Below, in pieces: positions 35,452 through 63,823 of a stretch of 64,000 nucleotides of DNA. This DNA is from Clostridia bacterium (lineage in GTDB: Bacteria; Bacillota; Peptococcia; DRI-13; SM3-B62): contig JAHDSQ010000031.1 of the NCBI GenBank assembly GCA_018432615.1, positions 6,009 to 70,008 of the forward strand. Reading direction: 5' to 3'. The notes beneath the pieces were generated by a model. That model was not told the DNA's origin. It worked only from the letters and a program-made list of their open reading frames with translations, and searched no databases. Numbering within the stretch: the first letter of the stretch is position 1; every line of letters starts with the position of its first letter. A program made the position numbers and the translations under genes.

Positions 35452-35452
35452 A

Positions 35453-44304: not shown

Positions 44305-44341
44305 TCACGGTGAGACGGTATCGTACAATCGAGAAAGGAGG

Positions 44342-44647
44342 ATGATGATGATGTCCGAGCTTGAAAGGTTCACTCAAGCACTTCAAGGTGATAAGGAGCT
44401 GGTGGAAGAACTGAAGTCTAGAGGAAACGATCTGGAAGAGATTGTCCGTTTCGCTAATTCCAAAGGATATAATTTTTCACTGCAGGAGTTGGTTACTGCA
44501 GCGGAAGAAAACGAAACCCTGTCCGAGGAGGAACTGGAGAGTGTAGCGGGTGGGTTTTTGACTTGCCTGGCCGGTGTTTCTTTTCAGATAGGAGATGGGA
44601 CCGGTCTTACGATTGCGGCCAAGGCCAAGGCTTTGGCGGTACTGTAA
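44342..44647 (+). CDS. Nif11-like leader RiPP precursor 2 (core FLTCLAGVSFQIGDGTGLTIAAKAKALAVL, 30 aa)
   Basis: The leader ...GNDLEEIVRFANSKGYNFSLQEL...LSEEELESVAGG is paralogous to precursor 1. There are four consecutive ATGs after GGAGG, and the true start is probably 44348 or 44351. Confidence 0.85.
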   Translation: MMMMSELERFTQALQGDKELVEELKSRGNDLEEIVRFANSKGYNFSLQELVTAAEENETLSEEELESVAGGFLTCLAGVSFQIGDGTGLTIAAKAKALAVL

Positions 44648-44679
44648 AAACTATAAAAGCGGGGAAAGGACAGCGAAAT

Positions 44680-44952
44680 ATGGTTATAAAAGAAATTAAG
44701 CGCTTTAATGAAGCTATACGTCACGACGAAGAACTTCAAAACCGGATCAAGGTCATTGGAGCGAATTTGGAAGAGATTGTCCGTTTCGCCAACCAAAAGG
44801 GATTCGATTTCACGGTAGATGATCTTAAAAAAGCACAAGACGGGGATATTGAGTTGTGCGATGAAGAATTAGAGTCTGTAGCGGGCGGAATCGTTGGTGC
44901 AATTGTGGCGCAGACGATAACAGTTGTCGGACTTGCTATAGTTTGCAATTAA
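44680..44952 (+). CDS. Nif11-like leader RiPP precursor 3 (core IVGAIVAQTITVVGLAIVCN, 20 aa)
   Basis: The ORF track starts at 44563 and overlaps precursor 2. The in-frame ATG at 44680 (MVIKEIKRFNEAI...) follows GGAAAGGA and aligns with the other two leaders. The leader ends CDEELESVAGG. Confidence 0.8.
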   Translation: MVIKEIKRFNEAIRHDEELQNRIKVIGANLEEIVRFANQKGFDFTVDDLKKAQDGDIELCDEELESVAGGIVGAIVAQTITVVGLAIVCN

Positions 44953-44973
44953 CAGGGTTACCGGGGGAGGTTA

Positions 44974-46407: not shown

Positions 46408-46410
46408 GTT

Positions 46411-49208: not shown

Positions 49209-51473
49209 ATGGGAAACGAGGAAAGAGGTATACGGCGCAAGGTACTGATGATAGCTTTTGGCCTGCTGATTGCGATCATGTCTTTCACGGGTTTTGTCAA
49301 TTATATGACTTTTTCCTCCAGTTATAATCACGCTCTGGTTAATACCTATTCAGTGGCAGGTAATGAGTTTGTCCGGAGTATTGAATATGCGCTGGGTTAC
49401 GGTAAGCCGATTGACAATTACTATGGGATGCAGGACACCCTTAATGAATTACATAGTCTTGTTCCCGAGCTTGAAGATGTTTTTATTGTCTCCCCTCAGG
49501 GTGAGGTTTTGTACGATTTAGACGGTTTTGTCGAAGATAGTCGCTTGCCTGATGAACTCTTGGAGGCGGCGGTTTTCCGGCAAGGATTGATCAAAGAAAA
49601 ACTGAGTTGGCGATTCTTTAAAGAAAAGGCTTATGTCTTCATCGGCATCAGCCATCATTCCTCAGAGCAAAGCACAGCCAATCATGTTGCCAGTCTGATG
49701 TTGGTTTTCCCCAAGAGTACTTTTTTACAAGCCAACAGCCCCTTTGCCAGGAACTTGGGGGCCTGGCTGGCGGGAATTGCGCTAATTGCCCTGGCTTTAT
49801 TGTCCTTCATTTTTTTCAAGACCAAACTGTTTAATAAGGGGACCTTTAGCAAGAAAAGGCTCTTTCTTACTTTAATTATGACTATTGGCTTAGCACAGCT
49901 TTGTTACACCGGCGTAAATTACTCCCTTTTCAAAAACTCCTACACGGATATGGCCTATAAAAGCAGGGATTTTATCCATACCATCGTGACAAGGAATATG
50001 GAAGACGTATACGATAAAGGGCTTAGCCCGGAGAATATTACGGGGCTTGACGAATACCTGGCTTCAATCAAAGAAAGTTTGCCTCAGATTTCCGAAATCG
50101 GTATTGAGCCGGTTCGAGTTACTGTTTCCGGTGATTATGTACACCAGCAGATTTTCAAGGTTCTGTTGGATATGTTGACGGTGCTGGTTATCTCAGTATT
50201 TTTTATGACCGAGCTCGCCTTATTGGCGGTATTAGTTATCATGGCCAGAGGCCCTACCCAGGCCGCCTATCAAAGTATTGGTGCTAATGCCGGACATGGC
50301 TTGGCAAGATCGTTGATTTTTTTCGTTAACCTATGTGCCTGCATGTCCCTGACCTTTGTTCCGATCGTTATGAAAACTCTTTATCAGCCGATTCCGGGAG
50401 TGGCTAAGGATGTGGTTTTAGGTCTGCCGCTTTCGGCGGAAATGCTGGGAGGGATCCTTGCTATTATCCTGGCGGGGTGGGCAATCAATAAACGGGGATG
50501 GCGCTCAATCTTCTATGTTGGGGTTTTGCTCTTAGCGGCAGGGAATATACTGGCAGCGCTCAGTGCGAACGGAATGTTGTTCGTTGTTTCCCGAGGGATA
50601 GCCGGCTTGGGATTAGGACATATTCTGATGGCTATTCGCAGCTTAGTAGTATCACTGCCAGAGCCTAATGCCGCCATTGCGGAATTCAGTGCGGGATCGA
50701 TAGCGGGTTTAAACTGCGGTCTGGTAGTCGGCGGTTTGCTGGCTGACCGAATCGGTTACGCTGCGGTATTTTACATAGCAGCTGCTTTGGCTATAGTCCC
50801 GGTTATTCTTGTCCGACGGTTCATGACTGAACTTGAAATCCGCGAAAGAGAAGGGGAGCACGCCCCCATCCGGGAAAAAGTCAGGGAGTTTATCATAAAC
50901 AAGAAGACACTCTTGTTTCTGGCCTGTATATTTATTCCTTACTTTATCAGTGGAGCATTTCTGGATTACTACTTTCCTTTGTTTGCGTCTGCTCACGGTC
51001 TTTCCCAAAGTGATATCAGTAGGGGCTTTTTACTGAACGGCCTGTTCATTATCTATTTAGGGCCGATTTTGACCAGGTATGTTACCGGGAAACTGGGCAG
51101 TGTCAGGGGGATTATGGCCTCGATGACGATTGTGATAGGCGCCTTGACAACCTTCTTTGTTTGCGGCACTGTGCCCGCCGCCTTGGTGACAATTGCTTTA
51201 TTGGGCATTGCCGAGGGTTTCGGAGTTTCGCTGAAAACCACCTATTTTCTTAATTTGCAGGGAATCAGGGATTTGGAGATTAATCAAGGGATCGCTTATT
51301 TTAGTGGGATGGTTAACTTAAGCAGAATGACAGGGCCGATAATCTATGGGTTAGCTTTATCGTTAGGTGCGAAAACGGGGATAGGTCTTATTTCGCTAAG
51401 TATGTTTGTATTATTACTGGTGTTTATCTTTTCCGTGGGATTGAAGCCAACATACGGAAAAAGTGGGAATTGA
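49209..51473 (+). CDS. MFS transporter with a ~340-aa N-terminal extension (TM, extracytoplasmic domain, TMs)
   Basis: The C-terminal ~400 aa have about 12 hydrophobic segments and MFS-like loops (NKRGWRS, SRGIAGLGLG). The N-terminal part is not recognised. Confidence 0.65.
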   Translation: MGNEERGIRRKVLMIAFGLLIAIMSFTGFVNYMTFSSSYNHALVNTYSVAGNEFVRSIEYALGYGKPIDNYYGMQDTLNELHSLVPELEDVFIVSPQGEVLYDLDGFVEDSRLPDELLEAAVFRQGLIKEKLSWRFFKEKAYVFIGISHHSSEQSTANHVASLMLVFPKSTFLQANSPFARNLGAWLAGIALIALALLSFIFFKTKLFNKGTFSKKRLFLTLIMTIGLAQLCYTGVNYSLFKNSYTDMAYKSRDFIHTIVTRNMEDVYDKGLSPENITGLDEYLASIKESLPQISEIGIEPVRVTVSGDYVHQQIFKVLLDMLTVLVISVFFMTELALLAVLVIMARGPTQAAYQSIGANAGHGLARSLIFFVNLCACMSLTFVPIVMKTLYQPIPGVAKDVVLGLPLSAEMLGGILAIILAGWAINKRGWRSIFYVGVLLLAAGNILAALSANGMLFVVSRGIAGLGLGHILMAIRSLVVSLPEPNAAIAEFSAGSIAGLNCGLVVGGLLADRIGYAAVFYIAAALAIVPVILVRRFMTELEIREREGEHAPIREKVREFIINKKTLLFLACIFIPYFISGAFLDYYFPLFASAHGLSQSDISRGFLLNGLFIIYLGPILTRYVTGKLGSVRGIMASMTIVIGALTTFFVCGTVPAALVTIALLGIAEGFGVSLKTTYFLNLQGIRDLEINQGIAYFSGMVNLSRMTGPIIYGLALSLGAKTGIGLISLSMFVLLLVFIFSVGLKPTYGKSGN

Positions 51474-51483
51474 GGTCGTTGAT

Positions 51484-52629
51484 ATGATGAAAACGAAAAA
51501 AGTCATAATTTTATACCTGCTTTTGTTTATCGGACTGGTAGGGTGTTCTGCCGGGGATTTAGCCACACAAAGGGAAAGGCAGGTGCAGCAAGGTCGCGAT
51601 ATCCTTATCGCAGTTCCTGTTCCGCTGGAGTTTGCTGAGAAAAACACAAAATTTTTACAAGGGGTTGAACTTGCCCTGGAAGACATCAATAGGGAGGGTA
51701 TCAAGGGTAAGAAATTCAAGCTGGAAATCGTGGATGATCAGGCCAATTTTAAGACAGCTGTTGATCTGGCTCAGCGGTTCAGCAAAGAAACCGGCACTCT
51801 CGCAGTCATCGGACATTGGTATTCCGACATTTGCCTGCCCATATCCCAAATATATGAAGAAGCGGAGCTTTTGACTATAGTGCCTACCGTTTCCAATCCG
51901 GAGTTAACGGAAAAAGGGTATGAATACATTTTTCAGAGTATTACCAGTGACAAGAGGATTGCTGAAAAAATGTGCGCCTATGCTAAGAGTAAAGGGTATA
52001 CACGGGTAGTAGTCTACTATGAAGATAGCTCCTACGGAGAGAATCTGGCCAAAGCCCTGGAGGAAGAAGCAAGCCGCAGCGGCCTTGTCGTTGTTGACAG
52101 AAGGTCGGGAGTGGTAACCGGGGAACAGTTCAGAAATGCCTATGACAAATGGACGGCTTTGGAATTCGACTCGGTTATGCTGGCGGTGAACATGCCTGAA
52201 GGGGCAGATTTCATCAGGAACTTGAGACAGATCGATCAGGAGGCCGCCGTTATAGCTGCCGATGGCTTGGATGTGGCCGATTTCATAACTGAGATTGGGG
52301 AGGATGCCGAAGGTGCGGTTATTATGACCACCTATAACCCCAACGATAGCAGGACTAAACTGGAGGGCTTTACCGGAAGATACCGGGCGAAATATCAGGA
52401 AGAGCCGGATATCTGGGCCATTCAGGGATACGAATCATTACAGCTTATCGCCCACGCCCTGGAGGAAACCGATAGTTATTCACCGGCTGTGTTGGCTGAA
52501 TACTTGCGGCAAATGGAGCCGTGGCCGAGTGTTTCCGGAACGATTAATTTTAATCAAAACGGAGAGATTGAAGGACGCAGGATTTACGCTAAAGAAGTAG
52601 TGAACGGTCAATTCCGATATGCCGACTGA
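51484..52629 (+). CDS. Lipoprotein, LivJ/Peripla_BP_6-type ABC substrate-binding protein (no cognate permease in the window)
   Basis: Lipobox LVGCSAG. Blocks ILIAVPVPL, VDDQAN...A, AVIGHWYS and YYEDSSYG are typical of branched-chain amino-acid-type SBPs. The ATG at 51484 is 7 nt after GAGGT; the track start at 51463 overlaps the MFS gene. Confidence 0.7.
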   Translation: MMKTKKVIILYLLLFIGLVGCSAGDLATQRERQVQQGRDILIAVPVPLEFAEKNTKFLQGVELALEDINREGIKGKKFKLEIVDDQANFKTAVDLAQRFSKETGTLAVIGHWYSDICLPISQIYEEAELLTIVPTVSNPELTEKGYEYIFQSITSDKRIAEKMCAYAKSKGYTRVVVYYEDSSYGENLAKALEEEASRSGLVVVDRRSGVVTGEQFRNAYDKWTALEFDSVMLAVNMPEGADFIRNLRQIDQEAAVIAADGLDVADFITEIGEDAEGAVIMTTYNPNDSRTKLEGFTGRYRAKYQEEPDIWAIQGYESLQLIAHALEETDSYSPAVLAEYLRQMEPWPSVSGTINFNQNGEIEGRRIYAKEVVNGQFRYAD

Positions 52630-52656: not shown

Positions 52657-54000
52657 ATGACGGAAAACAAGATTTTCAGAAAAATATCCCTGGATCGGTT
52701 ATCTTCCCCCGAAGAATTGGACCAGCGCCTAACTGTCATTTCACCCACAGGCTGGGTAGCGTTGTTTGCGGTGGGTATCTTAATTTTTGCCACCTTGGTG
52801 TGGGGTGTTTTCGGGAGGATTTCCGATAAGGCAATGGGTAGCGGAATTATTATCTCCGGCGGGGGTATTACCGGTTTGGTTCACCATGCCACCGGTCAGA
52901 TTAGCGATGTCAGCGTCCGTGACGGCGATTATGTCGGCAAGGGTCAGGTGATGGCACGTCTGGAGCAGACCCAGCTTATCGCGGATATTAATAAAAACAG
53001 AGAAGACCTGGCTGCGGTAAAAGCCATTGATTTGGATAGTCTGGAATTGAATGACAGCACGCGCAATTTTAATGTGTATAGCAGGTTTGGGGAGATTTAC
53101 AAGGGTTATCTGACGGCCCAGGCCAATTTGAATACCCAGACAAAGTATTACGAGGCGGAAAAAGCCAAAGCCGAGAACGAACTGGAAAAGGCCGGAATGC
53201 AATACGAGGCTGCTTTGGATAAATACAACAATTATAAAATTTTGTATGAACATGGTGCTGTTTCCAAAGACGAACTGGATGAGGCAGAGCGGGAAATGCT
53301 TAACTCCGAATCTTCCTACAATACCGTGAAGTACCATTTGAATGAACTGCCGCTGGCCCAGCTTAAGGAGGCGGAAACAGCCTTTGAAGCTCAGCGACAG
53401 TTGCTGAAGGACAATATCATCGCTTCTGTGATAGATTTGGAAAACACCATTCAAAAACAGCAAAATGAACTCCTAAGTAATAATGAGATAATAGCCGAGG
53501 TTTCCGGACGGGTCTTGGAAATGCAGGTGCAAAAAGGTGATATTTATCAAGCAGGAGAGGTCGTTTGCACGATAGCGGAAGAAGGTGAGCAAATCGATAC
53601 CCTGGAGGCTGTTATTTATGTACCGGCGGAGAAGGGCAAAAGAATTAGGCCCGGGATGGAAGTAAATATATCCCCGACTACGGTGCAGAAGGAAGAAAGC
53701 GGCTTTATGCTGGGCAACGTGGTAGAGGTTTCCGAGTACCCGGCCAGTGTCCAGGGAATGATGCTGACACTGGGCAATGCGGACTTGGCCAGACAGTTGT
53801 CGGGGAACAGTTCTCCCATCGAGGTCAGGGTAAAATTGATCAGGGACAGCAATACAGTCAGCGGATATAAGTGGTCGACGCCTAAGGGGCCGTCGATTGT
53901 CATAGACGGCGGGACGTTCTGCGCCGGGGAAGTAAAGATTGAGAAAAAACGACCGATCAGTATGGTCATACCTTTTATCAAGAAGCTTTTGCCTATCTGA
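52657..54000 (+). CDS. HlyD-family NHLP/Nif11 bacteriocin-system secretion protein (TIGR03794-like)
   Basis: The N-terminus IFRKISLDRLSSPEELDQRLTVISPTGWVALFAV is the signature of this subfamily as I recall it. It also has a coiled-coil middle and a beta-barrel C-terminus. Confidence 0.8.
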   Translation: MTENKIFRKISLDRLSSPEELDQRLTVISPTGWVALFAVGILIFATLVWGVFGRISDKAMGSGIIISGGGITGLVHHATGQISDVSVRDGDYVGKGQVMARLEQTQLIADINKNREDLAAVKAIDLDSLELNDSTRNFNVYSRFGEIYKGYLTAQANLNTQTKYYEAEKAKAENELEKAGMQYEAALDKYNNYKILYEHGAVSKDELDEAEREMLNSESSYNTVKYHLNELPLAQLKEAETAFEAQRQLLKDNIIASVIDLENTIQKQQNELLSNNEIIAEVSGRVLEMQVQKGDIYQAGEVVCTIAEEGEQIDTLEAVIYVPAEKGKRIRPGMEVNISPTTVQKEESGFMLGNVVEVSEYPASVQGMMLTLGNADLARQLSGNSSPIEVRVKLIRDSNTVSGYKWSTPKGPSIVIDGGTFCAGEVKIEKKRPISMVIPFIKKLLPI

Positions 54001-54052
54001 TAGATGCTAAAAAACCCGAACCAATGTATTGTGCTTTCAAGATTCTGAGGTG

Positions 54053-56218
54053 ATGAGCTTGCAAAGAAAAGGAAAAATGAAAAGGGTTCCCTCCATTTTG
54101 CAGATGGAAGCTGTGGAATGCGGCGCGGCTTCACTGGCAATGATTTTTGCTTATTATAAAAAATATCTGCCTTTAGAGCAGTTGCGTGTGGACTGTGGGG
54201 TCACTCGCGATGGGGTTAAGGCCAACAGTATCTTAAAAGCTGCCCGGAGGTATGGGTTTGTTGCCAAGGGTTTCCGGAAGGAGCCCGAAGGTTTGAGAGA
54301 GATGCCTTTACCGGCTATCATCCATTGGAATTTTAATCACTTCGTGGTCTTGGAAGGATTCGGGAAAGACGGGGTTTACATTAATGATCCGGGCTCCGGA
54401 CCCAGGACTATTGATTACGAAGAGTTTGACATGGCCTTTACCGGCGTGATTCTGACCTTTGAACCGGGGGAAGAATTTCAGCCCAGCGGGACAAAGAATA
54501 GTTTTATCGTTTCCTTGCGGCAGTGGTTGTCCGGTTCCCATACCGCAGTTATTTATCTGGTTCTGATTGGTCTCATTATGGTTATTCCGGGCTTGCTGGT
54601 ACCGGCTTTCAGTAAAATTTTTATCGATGACATCCTACTCGGGGGCAAAGGTGATTGGTTGAAACCTCTGCTGTGGGCCATGGGAGCGGCGGCCATTTTA
54701 CAGGGGGTATTGGTTGCCCTTCAGCAGTATTACCTGCTGAAAATGGAGACCAAAACCGCCATCAGTAATGCCGGGAAATTCTTTTGGCACATCTTCCGTT
54801 TGCCGGTGGAATTTTTTCAGCAGCGTTCAGCCGGAGATGTTTCCAACCGCCTGCAGAGCAACGACCAGGTAGCCGCGTTTTTATCCCGGGAGTTAGCCGA
54901 AACGGCGATAGGTTTTTTGACCATAATATTCTACTTTGTAGTCATGTTGCAGTTCAGCGTTATTTTGGCCTTGATTGCCCTGCTGATTGCCGCTTTGAAT
55001 ATCTGCTACCTCTTTTATTCTTCCAGTAAAATAGAGACCTTAAATGCCAAGCTTTTGCAGGATCAGGGCAAGGTAATGGGTTTTTCCATGTCCGGCTTAT
55101 TTATAATGGAAACTTTGAAAGCTTCCGCCTCAGAGTCGGACTTTTTTGCCAAATGGTCGGGATACCACGCCAAAGAAATCAATTCTCAACAAAAATTGGG
55201 CAAAACAGCGCAGGTGTTGTTACAATTGCCTGATTTTCTGTCGGAGTTTGCTAATGTTATTGTCTTGTTTGTGGGAGGGTTGACGATTATCAGCGGGAAT
55301 CTGACCATCGGCTCCCTGATTGCTTTCCAGGGACTGTTGGGTAGCTTTATGCAGCCGGTTAACGACTTGACACAGATGGGTATGAGGGTGAAAGAAGTCC
55401 AGGGTGATATTAACCGTTTGGAAGACGTTTTCAAGTACAAGTTGGATGAAAATGTTATTCGAGAAACAGAGACTGAGCATGAAGAGGATACTTGTCGGAA
55501 ACTGGAAGGCGACATAGAAATAAAGGATTTGTCTTTTGGCTATAGTCCATGGGATCCGCCCCTGATTGAGAACTTTAGCCTGAGACTCAAATCAGGTTCC
55601 CGGGTGGCCCTGGTGGGCGGATCCGGCAGTGGCAAGAGCACCGTTGCCAAACTAATCAGTGGAATTTATCTTCCCTGGTCGGGGGAAATACTTTTTGATG
55701 GCAAACGCCGGGAGGATTTACCTCGCGAGGTGATAGTCAACTCGATGGCCGTTGTGGATCAGGATATCACCATGTTTGACGGAACCATCAGGGAAAACCT
55801 TACCATGTGGGATGCCACCATCTCGGAATTAGATTTGATCCGGGCAGCCAAAGACGCCTGTATTCATGATGACATTACCTTACGGGACAAGGGGTATGAC
55901 CATAAGGTCAGTGAGGGTGGCAGTAACTTCAGCGGCGGCCAGAGGCAAAGACTGGAGATTGCCCGGGCCCTAACCGGTAATCCCTCCGTTTTGATTCTGG
56001 ATGAAGCAACCAGCGCCCTTGATGTCCATACGGAGAAACTGGTTGATGAGAACATCCGCCGTCGGGGCTGTACCTGTATAATTGTGGCCCATCGCCTGAG
56101 CACTATCCGGGATTGTGATGAAATCATTGTTCTGGAAAAGGGTAAGATTGTGGAACGCGGCACCCATGATCAGTTGAAAAATACCGGGGGGCTATATGCC
56201 CAGCTAATCAGCGCTTAA
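54053..56218 (+). CDS. Bacteriocin export ABC transporter with an N-terminal C39 double-glycine peptidase domain (TIGR03796-like)
   Basis: C39 motifs QMEAVECGAASLAMI (Cys), HWNFNHFVVL (His) and YINDPGSG (Asp). Six TM segments, Walker A GGSGSGKST, signature FSGGQRQR and Walker B LILDEATS. The start is ambiguous (TTG 54029, ATG 54053, ATG 54077). Confidence 0.9.
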   Translation: MSLQRKGKMKRVPSILQMEAVECGAASLAMIFAYYKKYLPLEQLRVDCGVTRDGVKANSILKAARRYGFVAKGFRKEPEGLREMPLPAIIHWNFNHFVVLEGFGKDGVYINDPGSGPRTIDYEEFDMAFTGVILTFEPGEEFQPSGTKNSFIVSLRQWLSGSHTAVIYLVLIGLIMVIPGLLVPAFSKIFIDDILLGGKGDWLKPLLWAMGAAAILQGVLVALQQYYLLKMETKTAISNAGKFFWHIFRLPVEFFQQRSAGDVSNRLQSNDQVAAFLSRELAETAIGFLTIIFYFVVMLQFSVILALIALLIAALNICYLFYSSSKIETLNAKLLQDQGKVMGFSMSGLFIMETLKASASESDFFAKWSGYHAKEINSQQKLGKTAQVLLQLPDFLSEFANVIVLFVGGLTIISGNLTIGSLIAFQGLLGSFMQPVNDLTQMGMRVKEVQGDINRLEDVFKYKLDENVIRETETEHEEDTCRKLEGDIEIKDLSFGYSPWDPPLIENFSLRLKSGSRVALVGGSGSGKSTVAKLISGIYLPWSGEILFDGKRREDLPREVIVNSMAVVDQDITMFDGTIRENLTMWDATISELDLIRAAKDACIHDDITLRDKGYDHKVSEGGSNFSGGQRQRLEIARALTGNPSVLILDEATSALDVHTEKLVDENIRRRGCTCIIVAHRLSTIRDCDEIIVLEKGKIVERGTHDQLKNTGGLYAQLISA

Positions 56219-56251: not shown

Positions 56252-58933
56252 TTGGGTTTCATTGACCGTTTAGCATCTGTCACAATCAAAACAGAAGGAA
56301 ACAAACCATTGCTTTTAACCGACTCTAAAGTCTGGCTGGTTAAAGAAGGCAAGGTCGATTTGTTTATCACCCGGACAGTCAACGAGGAAAGCGTAGGCAG
56401 CAGAAACTATCTGCTCACAGTTGACAAGGGGGAGATTTTCTGCGGACTAAAACCCATAAAAGCAGAAGATGAAGATTACGCCCTTCTGGCCGTGGGTCGT
56501 ACCGATACCTCGCTTTTGGAATTTAACCGTCATGAATTCACCCGGACAAAAACAAAGCCGGAACGTGATGAGATGGTCGGCTTCTTCAAGGAATGGATTA
56601 AAAAGTGGCAGGACTTGGGGCTTAAGGAAAACGGGGAATTTGATTGGGACAAAGATTTCGAGCCGGAAAAGCTGATGGAATACAATAGCCTTCTTTTTGC
56701 CGAGGGGCTCACAAGAATGCTTGAGGCCAGAAAAGAAGAGGTTTTGAGGATAAAAGCAAAACGTGCCCAGGATGAAGCCCGCATGAGTAGCGGATTGAAA
56801 AGACTGGCCGATACCTTAAACATTGGGGTACAAGTAAGTCAGGAAGCAGAAGAATACCACAGCGATAATCTGCTCTTTAAGGCTTGTGTGGCTGTGGGAA
56901 AGGCCAAGAAAATAACTATTCTTCCTTCCCATGGTCTGCGAAAAAACAAGCCTGATTCAAAAGACCTCTTGGGGGATATAGCCAGGGCCTCCCAAATTCG
57001 AATCAGAAAGATCATTTTAAAGGAAAACTGGTGGAAAGAAGATAACGGAGCCCTCCTTGTTTACAGGGAGGCCGACAAGCAGCCTTTGGCCCTTTTACCC
57101 GTATCTCCTTCCAAATATAAATTATATGACCCGGCTGAAGGCAGCCAGGTTATGGTGGATCAGGCGGTGGCGGATACGATAGATGCCCAAGCCTATACCT
57201 TCTATCGCCCGTTGCCGGCTAAGGCCATTGGGTATAAGGACCTTCTCAAGTATTTGGCGGATGGGATTTGGAAGTCGGACGTGATTACCGTATTGGTGAT
57301 GGGCTCACTGGGGGGGTTGTTGGGAGCTTTGACACCGGTAGTAACAGGAATTATTTTCGACAGCGTAATTCCTGACGGGGAAAGACTGCTATTAAGTCAA
57401 ATCGGCTTTTTACTCATTGCTATCGCTATTTCCTCCTTTGCCTTTGATTTAACCAGGTCATTCGCCTTGCACAGGATAGAAGGACGAACGGAAAGCGACT
57501 TGCAAGCTGCGGTTTGGGATCGTCTCTTGAGCCTGCCGGTACCTTTTTTTAAAGACTACACAGCAGGGGAGTTGGCCGGTCGTGCTATGGGTATCAGTCA
57601 AATCCGAAGTATCCTGTCGGGTGCGGCAGTAAATTCCATTATCTCGGGAATCTTCGCGATATTTTATTTTATCCTCTTGTTTTATTATAGCTGGATATTG
57701 GCCTTGATTGCTACGGCTATCGTAGCCGTCAATATGGGGGTATCCCTCTTATTCGGCTATCTGCAAATACGCTATGAACGTCAGCTGATCGATCTGAATA
57801 ACAGCCTGGCAGGAAAGATATTCGGCCTCTTAACCGGTATCAATAAAATCAAAACATCCGGATCGGAAAAGCGGGCTTTTCATAACTGGGCCACGGACTT
57901 CGGTCAGGTTAGGGACGTTACATACCGTAAAGAGACCCTGGGCAACAGAATGGCCGTTTTTAATTCTACGATAAATATCATTGCTACCGGGATTATCTTT
58001 TTCGCCTTAATAAGGGTCAGCGGAATCAACTTAGGCGCCGGTAAGTTTATTGCCTTTAACGCGGCCTTTTCAAGCTATTTGGGTGCCGTACTGCAAATAT
58101 CAGGCGTGGTTCTCCAACTCAATATCGTTAAACCCTTATATGAAAGGGTCAAACCGATTTTGGTGACCTTGCCCGAATTTGACGTTGATAAGGCCGATCC
58201 CGGGGAACTCGAAGGTAGTATTGAAGTGAAGCATGTGAACTTCCGCTACTATCCGGAGGGGCCTTTGGTTCTGAATGATATTGTTTTGGAAATCAAAAAG
58301 GGAGATTATGTGGGCATCGTCGGGACTTCCGGCAGTGGGAAGTCTACTCTGTTCAGATTGTTGCTCGGCTTTGAAAAAGCGGAGTCAGGTCAGATTTTTT
58401 ATGACCAGCATGACTTGGAGAAAGTGGATATCCGTTCTATTCGTCGTCAGTTAGGGGTTGTGTTACAAAGCGGTCAGTTGATGCATGGCAGTATTTTCGA
58501 CAATATTGTTGCTGCAGGTATCGGTTTGACCATGGATGATGCCTGGGAAGCGGCACGGATGGCTGGGATGGAAGAAGATATCAAGGGTATGCCTATGGGC
58601 ATGCATACCATGGTCAGCACAGACGGAGGCACACTTTCCGGCGGACAGCGGCAACGGCTGCTTATTGCCCGGGCTATTATCTCCAAGCCGAAAATCATTT
58701 ATTTCGACGAGGCTACCAGTGCTTTGGACAACAGAACCCAAAAAATTGTCAGTGAAAGCCTGGGCGGTTTAGGTGCTACCAGAGTCGTTATTGCCCATCG
58801 TCTGAGCACGATTGCTAACTGCAATAGGATTATCGTTATGGATAAAGGGCGGATTGTAGAGCAAGGCAATTATCAGGAACTGCTTGAGCAAGGCGGCCTC
58901 TTTACCCAACTGGTGAAGAGACAGCTAGCCTAA
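56252..58933 (+). CDS. Second bacteriocin export ABC permease/ATPase with an N-terminal cyclic-nucleotide-binding-like domain (TIGR03797-like)
   Basis: The N-terminal beta-barrel-like region (VWLVKEGKVDLFITR...GEIFCGL) is followed by a ~200-aa linker and a 6-TM domain. Walker A GTSGSGKST, signature LSGGQRQR and Walker B IYFDEATS. Confidence 0.85.
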   Translation: MGFIDRLASVTIKTEGNKPLLLTDSKVWLVKEGKVDLFITRTVNEESVGSRNYLLTVDKGEIFCGLKPIKAEDEDYALLAVGRTDTSLLEFNRHEFTRTKTKPERDEMVGFFKEWIKKWQDLGLKENGEFDWDKDFEPEKLMEYNSLLFAEGLTRMLEARKEEVLRIKAKRAQDEARMSSGLKRLADTLNIGVQVSQEAEEYHSDNLLFKACVAVGKAKKITILPSHGLRKNKPDSKDLLGDIARASQIRIRKIILKENWWKEDNGALLVYREADKQPLALLPVSPSKYKLYDPAEGSQVMVDQAVADTIDAQAYTFYRPLPAKAIGYKDLLKYLADGIWKSDVITVLVMGSLGGLLGALTPVVTGIIFDSVIPDGERLLLSQIGFLLIAIAISSFAFDLTRSFALHRIEGRTESDLQAAVWDRLLSLPVPFFKDYTAGELAGRAMGISQIRSILSGAAVNSIISGIFAIFYFILLFYYSWILALIATAIVAVNMGVSLLFGYLQIRYERQLIDLNNSLAGKIFGLLTGINKIKTSGSEKRAFHNWATDFGQVRDVTYRKETLGNRMAVFNSTINIIATGIIFFALIRVSGINLGAGKFIAFNAAFSSYLGAVLQISGVVLQLNIVKPLYERVKPILVTLPEFDVDKADPGELEGSIEVKHVNFRYYPEGPLVLNDIVLEIKKGDYVGIVGTSGSGKSTLFRLLLGFEKAESGQIFYDQHDLEKVDIRSIRRQLGVVLQSGQLMHGSIFDNIVAAGIGLTMDDAWEAARMAGMEEDIKGMPMGMHTMVSTDGGTLSGGQRQRLLIARAIISKPKIIYFDEATSALDNRTQKIVSESLGGLGATRVVIAHRLSTIANCNRIIVMDKGRIVEQGNYQELLEQGGLFTQLVKRQLA

Positions 58934-58969: not shown

Positions 58970-59515
58970 TTGAATAAAATCGGCAGTCCTTTGGTTGTGG
59001 CGGAAGAATCCGACAGTATTTCCAAGCTGTATCGTGACTACTATCCAAAGCTGTATAAATATACCCTTTACCGGGTAGGCGATTCAGCCACGGCAGAAGA
59101 CTTGGTCAGTGAGGTGTTTACCAAAATGCTGGCCAAATATCACACATATAACCCGGAGCGGGGTAAGTTCAGCACATGGCTTTTTACCATAGCGAATAAT
59201 ACAATTATTAATTACCATAATAAAAATCGCCATTATACTTCCATTGAGCCAAAACAGGCAGATCATAGGAATCCGCCGGAGGATGCGGTTATGAAGAAAG
59301 AATTAAAACATATGCTGGTTCAGGCAGTCATGAAGCTGGATGGGCGCCAGCGAAGCATAATTGCCCTTAAATTCGGTGCTTGTGAGACCAACCGGGAGAT
59401 TGCCCGGATGCTGAATCTGACGGAAAGCAATGTGGGAACGATCCTCTATCGAGCATTACAGCAATTACGGGATATTTTAAAGGAACAAGGCGTAGTGTAT
59501 GATTCGGAAATATAA
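58970..59515 (+). CDS. ECF-type sigma-70 family sigma factor
   Basis: Region 2 (YRDYYPKLYKYTLYRVGDSATAEDLVSEVF...FSTWLFTIANNTIINYH) and region 4 (RQRSIIALKF..ETNREIARMLNLTESNVGTILYRALQQLR). TTG start 6 nt after GAGGTGAG, 36 nt after the ABC gene. Confidence 0.85.
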   Translation: MNKIGSPLVVAEESDSISKLYRDYYPKLYKYTLYRVGDSATAEDLVSEVFTKMLAKYHTYNPERGKFSTWLFTIANNTIINYHNKNRHYTSIEPKQADHRNPPEDAVMKKELKHMLVQAVMKLDGRQRSIIALKFGACETNREIARMLNLTESNVGTILYRALQQLRDILKEQGVVYDSEI

Positions 59516-59530
59516 GCTGAGGTGAGGCCA

Positions 59531-59773
59531 ATGAAGGAAAAACCATCAAAACCGTTTCTGACGGCTGTGGATAAGATTGTATCCGGCAGGCGGCTGAAAC
59601 CGTCAGAATATGAGCAACACGACAAAGAAGATCAAGAACTGCTTTCTCTTGCGCAGGTGCTGGCGGAGGGGGTTTCAGCTGTGCAAAACGATGAATTGGC
59701 AGACGATGAGCTGGATATGGTGGCGGGGGGCGTAAACCCCAACGCATTACCCAACAAAAAAGATAAGCCTTAA
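59531..59773 (+). CDS. Small soluble protein in the anti-sigma position, carrying a double-glycine leader-type motif (..DDELDMVAGG / VNPNALPNKKDKP)
   Basis: It starts 6-15 nt after the sigma stop (GTG 59522 or ATG 59531 after GAGGTGAGG). There is no TM segment and no zinc-finger Cys/His. Residues just before GG match the (D/E)(D/E)xL(D/E)xVAGG ends of the six precursors in this locus. Confidence 0.55.
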   Translation: MKEKPSKPFLTAVDKIVSGRRLKPSEYEQHDKEDQELLSLAQVLAEGVSAVQNDELADDELDMVAGGVNPNALPNKKDKP

Positions 59774-59788
59774 TTGATATTAGAAAAA

Positions 59789-59820
59789 TATGTGGAAAAA
59801 TGTGTGGAAAATCTGTGATA
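59789..59820 (+). promoter_or_regulatory. TGTG(A/G) direct-repeat motif upstream of the HExxH gene
   Basis: ATATGTGGAAAAATGTGTGGAAAATCTGTGATA. Confidence 0.3.
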
Positions 59821-59893
59821 CTTTTGCCGCTGGCTTGTATAAGTAAACAGGAAAGGTAAAAACGAGACCGGAAGCGACGATGGGAAGAAAGGG

Positions 59894-60928
59894 GTGTCTG
59901 CTATTATGCCCGGATTAAAGTTATTAAAGGAAAATCATTTTACGCATACCGAGTCCTTATCCCGGGAGCAGATGCCTCTTGCGGACGAGCTTTTTGTGCA
60001 AGCCTGGGAAGATTATATCCGAAACATACCCGGTTTGGGCGTCTTGGGAGCCTTGCAGCAAGGACTGGTCCAGCTTTGTTTCCCAATCCGGGAGGGAATG
60101 AGTACCAATCAAGATTACCTGCAGGCAACCCGCCGGGGGGCCAATCCGACAGAATTTGAAAGTGCTGAGGGTATCAGACTTGAGAATTCGGAGGGGCTGA
60201 AGGTTTATTTATATCAGACTCCGGCAGGCCGAATTCCTGTCTTGGAAACTAAAAGCCGCCGGGATTTTGAATCCCTAATCCGGGCTATATGTTACAAAAA
60301 TGAACCGATTGCTATCCCCGCGTCCCTGGGAGCCTTTATGATCAAAGGATACAACAATTGGGACAGGGTAGCCCGGTATAAGCGAAAGTGCGGACAGTCC
60401 TTTGACTTTAATTATATGAAAGCCAACCGGGAGCTATATCAAGACACCTTCCTCATTTTGACCGATGCCGAATACAGCGGTGTAGCGGCAGAGATGTTGG
60501 GGATGGCGAAAGAGGAATGGCGCAGGCTGTCCTTAATAATCCGCAGGGAGCATGAAGCCACCCATTATTTTACCCAGCGCTTTCTTGGCTCCGCCAAGAA
60601 TCATCCTCTTGATGAGTTTATCGCTGATTATATGGGTATAGTAGCCGCCCTCGGCTACTATCGAGCAGACTGGTTTCTTTGTTTTATGGGACTGGAGGAA
60701 TACCCCGCTTTCCGAGCGGGAGGTCGGTTGACCAATTACCTGGAAAACAAAGAATTATCTCAGAGGGAATTTGACGAATTAAAGAGTTGTCTCAAAAGAG
60801 CGGCTGAAAACGTCGAAAGGCTTGGCACAGAGAACCCCGATATTTATTCTCCCCAAGGCAGGTATGAAATGCTGCTGCGTTTGTCCCAAAGTAATTTGTT
60901 AGCTTTGGCTGAAAACCTTTTTACATAA
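59894..60928 (+). CDS. Hypothetical protein with an HExxH motif (possible metallopeptidase)
   Basis: 344 aa, with REHEATHYF (HEATH) about 110 aa from the C-terminus and an acidic residue downstream (HPLDEFIADY). No signal peptide or TM segment. Family not recognised. Confidence 0.4.
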   Translation: MSAIMPGLKLLKENHFTHTESLSREQMPLADELFVQAWEDYIRNIPGLGVLGALQQGLVQLCFPIREGMSTNQDYLQATRRGANPTEFESAEGIRLENSEGLKVYLYQTPAGRIPVLETKSRRDFESLIRAICYKNEPIAIPASLGAFMIKGYNNWDRVARYKRKCGQSFDFNYMKANRELYQDTFLILTDAEYSGVAAEMLGMAKEEWRRLSLIIRREHEATHYFTQRFLGSAKNHPLDEFIADYMGIVAALGYYRADWFLCFMGLEEYPAFRAGGRLTNYLENKELSQREFDELKSCLKRAAENVERLGTENPDIYSPQGRYEMLLRLSQSNLLALAENLFT

Positions 60929-60984: not shown

Positions 60985-61020
60985 CGTGTGAAGTTTGAAA
61001 AGCATGTGAACCTATGAAAA
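60985..61020 (+). promoter_or_regulatory. TGTGA direct-repeat motif upstream of precursor 4
   Basis: CGTGTGAAGTTTGAAAAGCATGTGAACCTATGAAAA. The TTGAAA(A)GCATGT part also occurs at 43962..43975, upstream of precursor 1. Confidence 0.3.
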
Positions 61021-61037
61021 AGAAAGGATGGATCGAA

Positions 61038-61394
61038 GTGGCAACAAATTTTGAATTATTGCAGGCAAAACTGGAGGCAGACCCGGCTTTTGGGAAAAAA
61101 CTGATTGAACTGGAAACGGCAGAGGAAGCCCAAAGAATCTTAAAAGCAGAAGGAATGGAATTTACAGTGGAAGAGCTCAACTCTTTTGCTGAGGCGGTAA
61201 ACAAATACGGGGACAGCGAGGGCGAGCTTTCCGACGAAGCCCTGGAGGGCGTAGCCGGCGGTGTTGCTCTGGCCACCGTTGCGGCAGCGGCGACACTTTT
61301 CTCAATTGGCGATAGTATGACCGGCGGCCATGTCAGGAGAGCAGTTTCCAGCGGGGTCAGACGGGCGGCCAGGCGTATTTTCAGAGGTTGGTAA
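61038..61394 (+). CDS. Long Nif11-like leader RiPP precursor 4 (43-aa core VALATVAAAATLFSIGDSMTGGHVRRAVSSGVRRAARRIFRGW)
   Basis: Leader ATNFELLQAKLEADPAFGKKLIELETAEEAQRILKAEGMEFTVEEL...ELSDEALEGVAGG. The GTG at 61038 sits 6-8 nt after AAAGGATGG. The track start ATG 61014 lies inside a conserved upstream motif that reads GTG in the sister copy. Confidence 0.8.
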   Translation: MATNFELLQAKLEADPAFGKKLIELETAEEAQRILKAEGMEFTVEELNSFAEAVNKYGDSEGELSDEALEGVAGGVALATVAAAATLFSIGDSMTGGHVRRAVSSGVRRAARRIFRGW

Positions 61395-61413
61395 GCAGAG
61401 TAAAGTAAAAAAA

Positions 61414-61431
61414 CATGTGAATCTGTGAAAA
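61414..61431 (+). promoter_or_regulatory. TGTGA direct-repeat motif upstream of precursor 5
   Basis: CATGTGAATCTGTGAAAA. Confidence 0.3.
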
Positions 61432-61448
61432 AGAAAGGATGGATTGAA

Positions 61449-61805
61449 ATGGCGACAAGTTTTGAATTATTACAGGCGAAACTGGAGGCAGACCCGGCTT
61501 TTGGGAAAAAACTCGTTGAACTGGAAACGGCAGAGGAAGCCCAAAGCTTCTTAAAAGCAGAAGGCTTGGAATTCACGGTGGAAGAGCTTAAGTCTTTTGC
61601 TGAGGCGGTAAACAAATACGGGGACAGCGATGGCGAGCTTTCCGAAGAAGCCTTAGAAGGCGTAGCCGGCGGTGTTGCCCTTGCCACCGTTGCAGCGACG
61701 GCGACGATAGTGTCGGTTACTGATGATATGACCGGCGGTCATGTCAGAAGAACTGTTTCCAGTGGTGTCAGGCGGGCGGCCAGGCGCGTTTTCAGAGGGT
61801 GGTAA
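61449..61805 (+). CDS. Long Nif11-like leader RiPP precursor 5 (core VALATVAATATIVSVTDDMTGGHVRRTVSSGVRRAARRVFRGW)
   Basis: Tandem paralogue of precursor 4. The ATG at 61449 follows the same RBS; the track start is GTG 61425. Confidence 0.8.
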   Translation: MATSFELLQAKLEADPAFGKKLVELETAEEAQSFLKAEGLEFTVEELKSFAEAVNKYGDSDGELSEEALEGVAGGVALATVAATATIVSVTDDMTGGHVRRTVSSGVRRAARRVFRGW

Positions 61806-61823: not shown

Positions 61824-61841
61824 ATGTGTGAAACTGTGAAT
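61824..61841 (+). promoter_or_regulatory. TGTGA direct-repeat motif upstream of precursor 6
   Basis: ATGTGTGAAACTGTGAAT. Confidence 0.3.
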
Positions 61842-61904
61842 ATTTGAATTTTCGCGGATTCAGTATGATTCGAATAGTGAAAAATGAGGGTTGGAGGGGA
61901 AAAT

Positions 61905-62279
61905 ATGGAAAACCAAATTTTATCGACCTTAGAGTTGAATGAATTAATCGGCAAGAAAGCGGCTGAAGACGAAGCATTTCGACTTGCTTTGTTAAGCGAT
62001 CCCAAAGCGGCTTTGGAAAAGGAATTGGGAGTGGTGATTCCGGAAGATATTAAAATAGAGGTGCATGTGGAAAGCATGAAGTCCCTGCATCTGATTATAC
62101 CGCCTGCCAATACCGACGAACTGACGGATGATGATCTGGAATCGGTCGCCGGCGGTGCCGCCTCTTTTAGGCCGGATGTAATAATGATGTATGCCGTGCG
62201 TCCGCCTTCTGATTTCAAAAAAGGTGGCGGAACCGGGAGTCCGGCCTGGCGAGTAGCATTAGAAAAATTCAGAAAATGA
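61905..62279 (+). CDS. NHLP (nitrile-hydratase-like) leader RiPP precursor 6 (40-aa Cys-free core AASFRPDVIMMYAVRPPSDFKKGGGTGSPAWRVALEKFRK)
   Basis: The leader LIGKKAAEDEAFRLALLSDPKAALEKELGVVIPEDIKIEVHVESMKSLHLIIPP....LTDDDLESVAGG fits the NHLP pattern (TIGR03793 as I recall). The ATG at 61905 follows GGAGGGG; the track start at 61884 is less likely. Confidence 0.85.
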   Translation: MENQILSTLELNELIGKKAAEDEAFRLALLSDPKAALEKELGVVIPEDIKIEVHVESMKSLHLIIPPANTDELTDDDLESVAGGAASFRPDVIMMYAVRPPSDFKKGGGTGSPAWRVALEKFRK

Positions 62280-63823
62280 TAATCCAACGACCGATAACAG
62301 CAGTTTGGGAGATTACCATGGGTTGCAACATGCGCTGCAAACACTGCGGCTCTGCCTGCCATGACGTTCTCCCGGGAGAGTTGACGACAACAGAAGCCCT
62401 GCGGTTATGCGATGATATTGGCAAGCTTGGGATGAAGTGGATTACTTTATCCGGCGGTGAGCCGACCACCCGGAAAGACTGGCCGGACATTGCCGGAAGG
62501 TTGAAGGAGCGGGGTGTGGCTACCACTATAATTACCAATGGATGGCTCTTTGACGAGGTAATTCTGGAACAGGCAATTCAGGCCGGAGTCGCTACCATAG
62601 GCTTCAGCCTGGACGGCCTTCAGGAAACACACGATTTCATGCGCCGGGAGGGTTCTTACCAAAAGATTATGAAGGCTATTGAACTGTGCCTTAGCAGAAA
62701 CATGCACGCTACCGCCATTACCACGGTCAATAAAAAGAACCTGGGCGAGCTGGACAGGATAAAACAAGAATTGGCGGACAGAGGGGTCAAGGAATGGCAG
62801 GTTCAGATGGGTTGTCCCATGGGCAATATGGCTGAACACGACGATTTAGTCTTAGAGCCTACTGATATGGATACGATTATTGATTTGGCTTATCGGTGTA
62901 TGCAGGAGTCTTCGCTTAAAATCAACCTGGGTGACTGTGTCGGCTACTATAGTCTGCAAGAAATACAGATGGCCAAATACAGCCGGGAAAGCATCTATTG
63001 CCCTCAGTGTACTGCCGGAAAATATACCTTCGGTATCCTGCATAACGGGGATATTGTGGGATGTACTTCCATCAGGGATCCTGAGTTTACGGAAGGTAAT
63101 ATCAGGAAAACTCCCCTGAAAGAGATCTGGGAGAATCCGGACAGTTTCAGATGGAGCCGCACCATGAAAAAAGAAGACCTGCAGGGTTTTTGCGGAGTAT
63201 GTCGTTTTGCCGATGATTGCCTGGGCGGGTGTCCGAATTCCAGGTTAACCATGGGAGGCAGCATTTACGCAGAAAATCGTTACTGTTCTTATTTTCAGGC
63301 CGTTCAGAAAAGAATTCGCATCTTTGAAGAAATACAGGATTTCGACGAACTGGCGGCAATGGGCCGAAGCTTTACGGAAAAAGGATACTGGCAGTTGGCT
63401 GAAACCGCATTAAGCGTGGCCCTGGGCAGGCAAGGTGCGGATAGCGATTCTGGGCTTTTGAGCCATTATGGGTATGTGAATTTCAGGCTAGGTAATTATC
63501 ATGTTGCCCTGGAAGCAAACGAGAAGCTGTTGCAAAGAAGCCCTACTGATGTATACGGACTTAAAGGAAAAGGATTGTGCTTACTACGTATGGGTAAGAC
63601 GGAAGAGGGAATCGAACTGCTGAAAAGGGCTATGGCTTTGACGGATGAAAGCTTTATGGATCCCTATTATGATTTGGCTATTGCCTTGTCGGAAATAGGT
63701 CGTGAGAAGGAAGCAATGGCAGTTCTTGAAGAAGGCCGTAAGAAGTCGGAGGGCTTTGTGGACCAAAGCGAGGATTTGTATCAGAAGTTGGCGGATAGTG
63801 CTAAAAAAGCTGTGGGGGTTTAG
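62276..63823 (+). CDS. Radical SAM / SPASM-domain peptide maturase with a C-terminal TPR domain
   Basis: GCNMRCKHCG (CxxxCxxC) at the N-terminus. SPASM-type Cys set CPQC...GCTS...GFCGVCRFADDCLGGCPNS. The last ~170 aa are TPR-like (YWQLAETALSVAL..., NYHVALEANEKLLQ..., GKTEEGIELLKRAMAL...). Its start ATG overlaps the precursor stop (ATGA at 62276..62279). Confidence 0.85.
   Translation: MIIQRPITAVWEITMGCNMRCKHCGSACHDVLPGELTTTEALRLCDDIGKLGMKWITLSGGEPTTRKDWPDIAGRLKERGVATTIITNGWLFDEVILEQAIQAGVATIGFSLDGLQETHDFMRREGSYQKIMKAIELCLSRNMHATAITTVNKKNLGELDRIKQELADRGVKEWQVQMGCPMGNMAEHDDLVLEPTDMDTIIDLAYRCMQESSLKINLGDCVGYYSLQEIQMAKYSRESIYCPQCTAGKYTFGILHNGDIVGCTSIRDPEFTEGNIRKTPLKEIWENPDSFRWSRTMKKEDLQGFCGVCRFADDCLGGCPNSRLTMGGSIYAENRYCSYFQAVQKRIRIFEEIQDFDELAAMGRSFTEKGYWQLAETALSVALGRQGADSDSGLLSHYGYVNFRLGNYHVALEANEKLLQRSPTDVYGLKGKGLCLLRMGKTEEGIELLKRAMALTDESFMDPYYDLAIALSEIGREKEAMAVLEEGRKKSEGFVDQSEDLYQKLADSAKKAVGV

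Follow-up and report, generated by a model that had tools for sequence, protein, structure and literature searches.

A double-glycine leader motif on a putative anti-sigma factor encoded between an ECF sigma factor and the RiPP genes of a Clostridia bacterium

We analysed a 64-kb stretch of DNA (the window) from contig JAHDSQ010000031.1 of a Clostridia bacterium, with the focus on two adjacent plus-strand genes that encode a sigma factor of the extracytoplasmic function (ECF) type (58970-59515) and a protein of 80 residues (59531-59773). They belong to a cluster with a C39 peptidase-ABC (ATP-binding cassette) exporter and its cargo, the precursors of RiPPs (ribosomally synthesised and post-translationally modified peptides). 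The 80-residue protein is very probably an anti-sigma-type partner of the sigma factor. In its C-terminal part it has a double-glycine (GG) motif of the kind found in the leaders of the RiPP precursors, and it is likely to be recognised by the C39 domain of the exporter. We give a somewhat better than even chance to the full circuit set out below, in which the protein is the cognate anti-sigma factor and its transmembrane (TM) helix and extracytoplasmic sensor have been swapped for the leader motif. The presence of the GG tag on an anti-sigma-type protein suggests that the peptidase-exporter of the cluster switches on the production of its own cargo.

The sigma factor of 181 residues was matched by Sigma70_r2 (9e-21) and Sigma70_r4_2 (1e-9) and by the ECF model TIGR02937 with 118 bits against a cutoff of 42.9. 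Since it has only the regions 2 and 4 and matches the ECF superfamily model, it is a member of the ECF (group 4) sigma-70 factors. None of the specific sigma equivalog models reached its cutoff, the best being TIGR02952 with 144.8 against 206. About 95 clusters of orthologues were found at an identity of at least 49%, and the nearest ECF sigma factors of the outgroup are 37-45% identical to the window sigma factor.

The small open reading frame (ORF) is in the frame of the sigma gene and has two possible starts, in agreement with the distance of 6-15 nt in the earlier note on this DNA, a GTG at 59522 (6 nt past the sigma stop) and an ATG at 59531 (15 nt past it). The ATG is preferred because of its better ribosome-binding site (GAGGTGAGG, 59519-59527, plus strand, as read from the sequence) and its agreement with the N-termini of the homologues, whose ATG starts are preceded by equivalent GAGGTG sites. 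The product was described before as soluble and acidic, and this holds for the 80-residue form, which has a pI of 4.7, a grand average of hydropathy of -0.77, no cysteine and no hydrophobic stretch of TM length. Scans of Pfam and NCBIfam at cutoff and relaxed Pfam scans of each family member assigned the protein to no family and found no zf-HC2. A word-indexed search returned 3 homologues. With a profile, 23 were found at E<=1e-3 among 1.8 billion representatives (50% identity), 22 of them with a length of 72-107 residues, and at least 36 homologue clusters were found in a set of 5.8 billion (90% identity), which brings the total to about 36-49. All of these are named no further than 'hypothetical protein'. 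The family is small and restricted to anaerobic Firmicutes known chiefly from metagenomes, and the closest relatives are metagenome-assembled genomes (MAGs) of Peptococcaceae and Desulfotomaculum.

The conservation of the gene pair was followed in 25 genomic loci, which were fetched via the DUF7005 protein encoded downstream of the pair, and in an alignment of 36 members of the small-protein family. The loci come from MAGs and isolates of Peptococcaceae, Desulfotomaculia, Pelotomaculum, Syntrophomonadaceae and Heliobacteriaceae. Wherever the sigma gene was present, i.e. in 19 of the 25 fetched loci and in the window, the small gene was found directly 3' of it (20 out of 20), at a spacing of about 0-60 nt. 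Four loci (L021, L022, L024 and L025) have their genes arranged as ABC2-DUF7005-sigma-small and not as ABC2-sigma-small-DUF7005, and the pair was relocated as a unit. The position in the canonical anti-sigma slot therefore reflects a true sigma partner, as the linkage holds even where the pair sits on the other side of the DUF7005 gene.

Residues 1-53 (59531-59689, plus strand) form a predicted helical domain with a putative sigma-binding function. AlphaFold2, supplied with the 36-sequence alignment, modelled helices at residues 7-17, 24-27 and 32-53 with predicted local distance difference test (pLDDT) values of 80-91 for residues 1-40 and of 76 for residues 41-50. The region was then compared by hhalign with the partner proteins of outgroup sigma factors. 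For this, the family profile was built without the GG region, to keep that region from dominating the result. Against five outgroup partners the comparison gave a probability of 97.1% (E 6.5e-11), and against the three partners with a single TM segment alone it gave 95.8% (E 7.4e-9). The reversed profile scored 0.4% and twenty column shuffles scored at most 1.0%, and for 42 Nif11 leaders of these loci, compared by their N-terminal parts, the probability was only 3% (E 0.014). The first ~55 residues of the outgroup partners with a TM segment are aligned, with DLDAYLAG...EYKELLELGKLLIDNDFS facing DIDKIISG...EYKELLxLAQLLAKADYT of the small family.

In two of the outgroup cases, the sigma factors P0150 (Serpentinicella) and P0167, the next gene overlaps the sigma gene by 4-8 nt and encodes a single-pass membrane protein with a C-terminal DUF4367. 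The gene next to the P0153 sigma factor encodes a single-pass protein of 251 residues with a weak match to the NCBIfam 'anti-sigma factor'. The genes of these TM partners extend over the stop codon of the sigma gene. The homology to the N-termini of such partners indicates that the N-terminal half of the small protein corresponds to the cytoplasmic domain of an anti-sigma-type partner and not to a RiPP leader. In the outgroup membrane partners, a TM helix takes the place of the GG motif of the small family. Replacement of the TM and sensor module with the 3' part of the leader of a precursor would therefore be the simplest history.

The H-x3-C-x2-C motif of the zinc-binding anti-sigma subfamily was absent from the window protein. 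Cysteines occur in the family at three positions (corresponding to about residues 6, 27 and 30 of the window protein) in about 8-10 of the 36 members each, and all three together in 2 of the 36. Because of this sporadic occurrence a zinc site was rejected for the family. The scattered cysteines may have been left over from an ancestral anti-sigma factor that bound zinc.

The GG motif covers residues 54-67 (DELADDELDMVAGG, 59690-59731, plus strand) and has a predicted cut after G67. It is followed by a short basic tail of residues 68-80 (VNPNALPNKKDKP, 59732-59770, plus strand, pI 9.7), the part which a C39 exporter would translocate. The C-terminus reads ...NDELADDELDMVAGG|VNPNALPNKKDKP, or in a shorter form ...ELADDELDMVAGG|VNPNALPNKKDKP. 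In the 36 members the residues L-12, D-10, L-7, D-6, V-4, A-3 and G-1 are invariant or nearly so, and G-2 is replaced by alanine in 2. The consensus of the family from -14 to -1 is [DG]-E-L-[EA]-D-[DE]-[ED]-L-D-[ML]-V-A-G-G, and that of 42 co-located Nif11-type precursors is G-E-L-S-D-E-[DA]-L-E-[GDE]-V-A-G-G. Both have an identical recognition skeleton with hydrophobic residues at -12, -7 and -4 followed by GG, which is the consensus of GG leaders. When the six-frame translation of the window was searched with L.[DE]..L[DE].VAGG, 7 matches were observed, i.e. the six precursors (44047, 44342, 44563/44680, 61014, 61425 and 61884) and the small ORF; no match occurred in 30 shuffles. The likeness to all six precursors, noted before, is more than chance, and the motif is conserved in the family.

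The tail has 11-25 residues in the family and always follows the GG. Its consensus is [VL]-N-x-N-x-[LIM]..[DE]-E-K-x-K-K, with N+2 in 31 and N+4 in 25 of the 36 members. The pLDDT of the GG region and the tail was 51-55, and this part of the protein is accordingly predicted to be flexible and disordered.

The pair is encoded at the end of the exporter operon, in which the genes are ordered MFS-PBP-HlyD-ABC1-ABC2-sigma-small (MFS, major facilitator superfamily; PBP, periplasmic-binding protein) with sigma as the last but one. The exporter genes, all on the plus strand, comprise the HlyD-type adaptor of an NHLP bacteriocin exporter (52657-54000; TIGR03794 with 354 bits, cutoff 156), the C39 peptidase/permease/ATPase subunit ABC1 (54029-56218; TIGR03796 with 1089 bits, cutoff 853; Peptidase_C39 at 3.4e-37) and the second subunit ABC2 (56252-58933; TIGR03797 with 921 bits, cutoff 709, covering residues 206-892). 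The gaps of 28 nt between HlyD and ABC1 (with the TTG start at 54029), 33 nt between ABC1 and ABC2 and 36 nt between ABC2 and sigma agree with the operon structure proposed before. In the C39 domain of ABC1 the candidate catalytic residues Cys (ECGAAS), His (NHFVVL) and Asp (NDPG) are all present, and from its sequence ABC1 is the presumed processing enzyme for the GG motifs. The N-terminal 205 residues of ABC2 (56252-56866) extend beyond the TIGR03797 model and have no Pfam match. Since they occupy the place of the C39 domain in ABC1, they might be a degenerate leader-binding domain.

Wherever the DNA fetched for a locus of the clade continued upstream of sigma, genes of an NHLP-type C39 exporter were found, up to the limit of the contig. 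Such an exporter is present in two loci of a sister clade as well. There, the sigma factors P0146 and P0148 have soluble partners of 123-126 residues with the same N-terminal domain (L033:5563-5943 and L037:3563-3934; contexts L041 and L042). These partners have an AG-type motif (EEDLDRVAAAG and EEDLSYVTAG) followed by a Cys-rich end resembling a zinc ribbon (CPYCG...C..C), which could itself be a substrate of a radical S-adenosylmethionine (radical SAM) enzyme. Within 10-kb flanks, both sister loci encode a Nif11 precursor, a radical SAM protein and the PBP-HlyD-C39 ABC-ABC2 series. At the three loci with membrane partners no such exporter was observed within the 3-5 kb fetched on each side. 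Leader-tagged partners thus accompany peptidase-exporters and membrane partners do not, in a comparison of small numbers (22 versus 3 loci).

A conserved promoter was found directly after the pair. The alignment of 19 loci revealed a bipartite ECF-like element at 59814-59844 (plus strand) with the -35 element tGTGATAC (59814-59821), a spacer of 14 nt and the -10 element tTGTATAAgt (59835-59844). Its core GTGATAC-N14-TGTATAA (59815-59842) faces the genes for DUF7005, three RiPP precursors and a radical SAM maturase, with the DUF7005 gene as the first. In the family the promoter has the form tGTG[AC]TAC, 14 nt, tTGTATAAgtaaATAGAA. The alignment is ungapped, GTG.T.C and TGTAT.A are invariant and the spacing is fixed, and the sequence of the spacer is variable. 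A relaxed pattern matched once in the window and in the other loci almost only at the same position. The motif lies 3' of the small gene in every locus with the pair, including those with the rearranged order, where it faces the precursors; L024 and L021 have variants. In the sister-clade locus L037 and in the sigma-less locus L020, TGTAATAC-N14-CGTAT was found before the Nif11 precursors.

The co-occurrence with the pair and the ECF-like form suggest that the window sigma factor uses the promoter GTGATAC-N14-TGTATAA, for which the transcription start is predicted at about 59849-59852. Upstream of sigma the motif is absent in all loci; the sigma gene starts 36-170 nt past the preceding gene with only a ribosome-binding site. 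Autoregulation, for which a copy 5' of the sigma gene would be usual, was therefore rejected. The layout is that of a unit of exporter, sigma and anti-sigma genes, then an ECF-type promoter and then the cargo and maturase genes. It fits the proposal of the earlier note that the transcription of the precursors is tied to the exporter.

Two further observations were made on the promoter region. Locus L020 (L020:11030-11180, Pelotomaculum terephthalicicum JT) encodes DUF7005 and the exporter but has no sigma/small pair within 10 kb. Its motif before the Nif11 precursor, TGTAATAC-N14-CGTATTAA, resembles that of the sister clade, and the controlling sigma factor may be encoded elsewhere in the genome. 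In the window, a sequence (A)TGTG(A/G)AAnCT(A/G)TG recurs just 5' of each precursor (~61001-61016, ~61413-61427 and 61824-61838) and at ~59786-59817, where it overlaps the -35 element. It could be an operator, a set of internal weak promoters or an RNA processing signal.

In the circuit that we propose, the sigma factor and the anti-sigma factor would be made from the final two genes of the exporter operon, and the helical N-terminal domain would keep the sigma factor inactive. When assembly of the C39 peptidase-ABC exporter is complete, the peptidase domain of the exporter would bind the exposed leader helix (L-12, L-7, V-4 and GG) and cut after G67. The 13-residue tail would take the route of the cargo. 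The leftover anti-sigma fragment would be let go by the sigma factor or degraded, a soluble counterpart of the regulated proteolysis of membrane anti-sigma factors; the cut would inactivate it either through the loss of residues with a share in the binding or by making the fragment accessible to degradation. The free sigma factor would bring RNA polymerase to the promoter at 59815-59842, and DUF7005, the three precursors and the radical SAM maturase would be transcribed. The precursors would then compete with the anti-sigma factor for one peptidase site. As the site is shared, accumulating precursors would protect the anti-sigma factor, and a homeostatic, negative feedback would result. We infer that the small protein binds the sigma factor, that it is cleaved by the C39 domain, that cleavage activates the sigma factor and that the sigma factor uses this promoter. 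The chances are about equal for and against a new ECF input mechanism of this kind, i.e. the proteolytic inactivation of a leader-tagged anti-sigma factor by the C39 peptidase-exporter of the cluster, with substrate competition as the feedback.

The logic resembles that of FlgM and sigma-28 (FliA), where the sigma factor transcribes the late substrates of an export machine and the anti-sigma factor is exported by this very machine, so that the exporter comes first and then the cargo. Like the small protein, FlgM is small, soluble and partly disordered. It is exported whole by a type III system, and sigma-28 falls outside the ECF sigma factors. With C39 ABC exporters, only the cargo at the C-terminal side is translocated, and the leader side of the substrates stays behind in the cytoplasm. 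Since the anti-sigma domain of the small protein is on the leader side of the C39 site, it would, unlike FlgM, probably stay in the cell, and its inactivation would need cleavage, capture or degradation. The logic is shared but not the physical route. The anti-sigma factor proposed earlier is supported by the linkage to the sigma gene, the N-terminal homology and the conserved motif next to an exporter, whereas a secretion in the manner of FlgM is improbable. The small protein also does not belong to the FlgM family (PF04316), as no Pfam match was found at E up to 10.

The remnants of membrane anti-sigma factors are cleared by degradation after site-2 proteolysis. In RsiW/SigW, RsiV/SigV and RseA/SigE the sigma factor is bound by an N-terminal cytoplasmic domain, a dedicated protease cuts the segment behind this domain, and the remnant is degraded (PMC10202637). 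The nearest relatives of the window sigma factor have single-pass partners with a homologous N-terminus, and the proposed chemistry is closer to these systems than to FlgM. They differ in that the small protein has no TM helix or extracytoplasmic sensor and that the putative protease is a cytoplasmic C39 domain and not a pair of site-1 and site-2 proteases.

A second system of the secretion type is known from Bordetella, where the antagonist BtrA (BspR) of the ECF sigma factor BtrS is a substrate of the secretion system under sigma control (PMC10732220, PMC7498569). As in the window, an ECF sigma factor would have an antagonist that is handled by the secretion machine it controls. BtrA, however, is secreted as a whole protein by a type III system with a CesT-family chaperone in a Gram-negative host, and there is no proteolytic tag and no RiPP cluster.

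Substrates with GG leaders, i.e. class II bacteriocins, ComC/BlpC pheromones and Nif11/NHLP precursors, share with the small protein the recognition skeleton and the gene position near a transporter. They are unlike it in that the small protein has an anti-sigma-type domain before the motif, a 'cargo' of only 11-25 residues and its own residues at -6 and -5. An ECF sigma/anti-sigma pair within a RiPP cluster is also present in MibX/MibW of the actinomycete lantibiotic microbisporicin, where it drives the biosynthetic genes. [quoted passage not shown]

Several points weigh against the proposed circuit. The N-terminal domain was matched neither by the curated anti-sigma models (zf-HC2, RskA and RsgI) nor by solved anti-sigma structures, and the outgroup partners that do match it are themselves uncharacterised. 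At -11, at -6 (D versus E) and at -5 (Met/Leu versus Gly/Asp/Glu) the small family departs from the precursors, and its choice of residues at -6 and -5 could point to a motif that is bound without being cut. The AAG/AG motif of the sister clade fits a GG site more weakly. A terminator scan between the small gene and the DUF7005 gene found none, so that read-through could express the cargo genes without the sigma factor. Finally, the anti-sigma domain would be kept in the cell, and export could not account for the release of the sigma factor from it.

Some of these points would be met by a GG helix that mimics a leader and binds reversibly, uncleaved, to the C39 domain or to another leader-binding protein of the pathway. 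The sigma factor would be free while the exporter is unoccupied and would be re-captured when precursors displace the anti-sigma factor, and the tail would never be exported. We regard this as rather unlikely, since G-1, V-4 and A-3 are invariant and G-2 is a glycine in 34 of the 36 members (alanine in 2), as the scissile site of a substrate requires, since the catalytic triad of the C39 domain is intact by sequence and since a conserved tail of 11-25 residues always follows the GG. On its side are the invariant D at -6 and the M/L at -5, which set the motif apart from true substrates, and the weaker AG motifs of the sister-clade partners. Partner switching is moreover one of the three mechanisms, besides conformational change and mechanosensing, that were reported for soluble anti-sigma factors in a review of non-canonical ECFs (PMC8999054).

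The other proposal of the earlier note, that the ORF is the precursor of an exported GG-type signalling peptide of 13 residues, VNPNALPNKKDKP, appears quite improbable as regards its main function, although signalling may be a second one. The N-terminal part would then be merely a long leader or have a dual role, but it is homologous to anti-sigma-type partners and not to a leader. Conservation of the tail is moderate for both its sequence and its size, including N+2, N+4 and the basic end, and the tail is comparable in size to the GG pheromones of the ComC/BlpC type; pheromones, however, usually diversify, and the tail is conserved across families. A peptide could be sensed by the conserved periplasmic-binding protein and the MFS-fusion membrane protein encoded nearby, but the genes for these proteins also occur in loci without the sigma/small pair (L010, L020 and L028), and no histidine kinase or other known pheromone receptor was found in the locus of the window.

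The small protein could also be a normal RiPP precursor that lies beside the sigma gene by chance and gives DUF7005 or the radical SAM enzyme a third type of substrate. This is very unlikely, although the ORF is located directly 5' of the DUF7005 gene in the window, weak matches below threshold were obtained to bacteriocin and RiPP leader models, and the best PDB match of the family profile was the Nif11 domain protein 9zn4_A (E 0.11). When the GG region was removed, the similarity to Nif11 was gone (hhalign probability 3%) and the reading as a Nif11 leader was rejected; the match to 9zn4 is consistent with the shared GG region. In the four loci where DUF7005 is upstream of sigma the small gene has kept its place after sigma, neither Cys nor any other conserved residue suited to cross-linking is present in the core, and the conserved promoter is 3' and not 5' of the small gene. 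An ORF that arose by chance between the sigma and DUF7005 genes, for which the short length and the missing database name might speak, has a negligible probability and is refuted by the invariant residues, the conserved length, the strong ribosome-binding site and the fixed position across MAGs of Peptococcaceae, Desulfotomaculia, Syntrophomonadaceae and Heliobacteriaceae.

A described ECF system with a GG-leader partner was not known to the earlier note, and among 8 million full texts none was found to connect an anti-sigma factor in this sense with a double-glycine leader, a C39 exporter or a RiPP leader. Nothing relevant was found on DUF4367 with anti-sigma factors in this context, and the main text of the ECF reclassification paper has no mention of double-glycine, C39, RiPP leader, DUF7005 or DUF4367. 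The logic of a sigma/anti-sigma pair that is gated by a secretion machine is known, and the GG-leader tag on the anti-sigma factor appears to be new. If the circuit is correct, the processing of an anti-sigma factor by a bacteriocin-type peptidase-exporter would be a fourth mechanism beside the three of the review (PMC8999054), and it would link ABC peptidase-exporters for the first time to sigma-factor control. No precursors would be made before the exporter is in place, a plausible strategy of self-protection. A switch would also be at hand for the silent Nif11/NHLP radical-SAM clusters of uncultured anaerobes, through deletion of the small gene or overexpression of the sigma factor, with GTGATAC-N14-TGTATAA as the defined promoter. 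The design would then be shared by at least two sister clades of sigma factors from anaerobic Firmicutes, and this would suggest a general principle of leader-tagged regulators for RiPP clusters.

The region from 49.2 to 63.8 kb of the window is a single plus-strand block with the exporter of an NHLP/Nif11 'bacteriocin system' and its RiPP cargo. Scans of the window against Rfam and for plasmids gave no match. The block starts with the gene for the MFS-fusion membrane protein of 754 residues (49209-51473; PF07690), which has an N-terminal membrane or sensor-like region and an MFS domain, followed by the gene for the periplasmic-binding protein (51463-52629; Peripla_BP_6/ANF_receptor). Both lie 5' of HlyD and are kept in most loci that were fetched far enough upstream. 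The periplasmic-binding protein was found in the sister clade and in loci without the pair as well.

On the other side of the pair, the DUF7005 protein is encoded at 59894-60928 (plus strand; PF22541, 3.7e-116). Its HExxH motif (HEATH, 60551-60565, in the context EHEATHY) was conserved in all 10 homologues checked, including the distant ones from Desulfatiglans and Chlorobiaceae, which is suggestive of a metalloenzyme that acts as a protease or belongs to the oxidative HExxH enzymes. No mention of DUF7005 was found in the full-text literature. Then follow, on the same strand, two Nif11-type GG-leader RiPP precursors (61014-61394 and 61425-61805; TIGR03798 above cutoff), one NHLP-type GG-leader RiPP precursor (61884-62279; TIGR03793 above cutoff) and a radical SAM/SPASM maturase with C-terminal tetratricopeptide (TPR) repeats (62276-63823; Pfam Radical_SAM, SPASM and TPR; TIGR04103 and TIGR03913 below cutoff). 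Most of the Nif11-type precursors of the DUF7005 loci (window 61014-61805 and L007-L027) end with R-[GS]-R-W or FRGW. The rest of their core is hydrophobic and variable, and the C-terminal motif may be a site of recognition or modification.

Two other elements of the window were noted. A second RiPP cluster (41085-43556 and 44047-48387) encodes three Nif11-type GG precursors at 44047, 44342 and 44563/44680 together with a weak radical-SAM protein (44974-46407) and a radical SAM enzyme of the B12-binding type (46411-48387), with a MalT/LuxR-type regulator upstream. It is without an exporter of its own and presumably uses the C39 exporter at 54029. A sigma/anti-sigma pair of the SigI/RsgI type (34783-36493; Sigma70_r2, RsgI_N and RsgI_M) is also present and is unrelated to the pair of the ECF sigma factor and the small protein.

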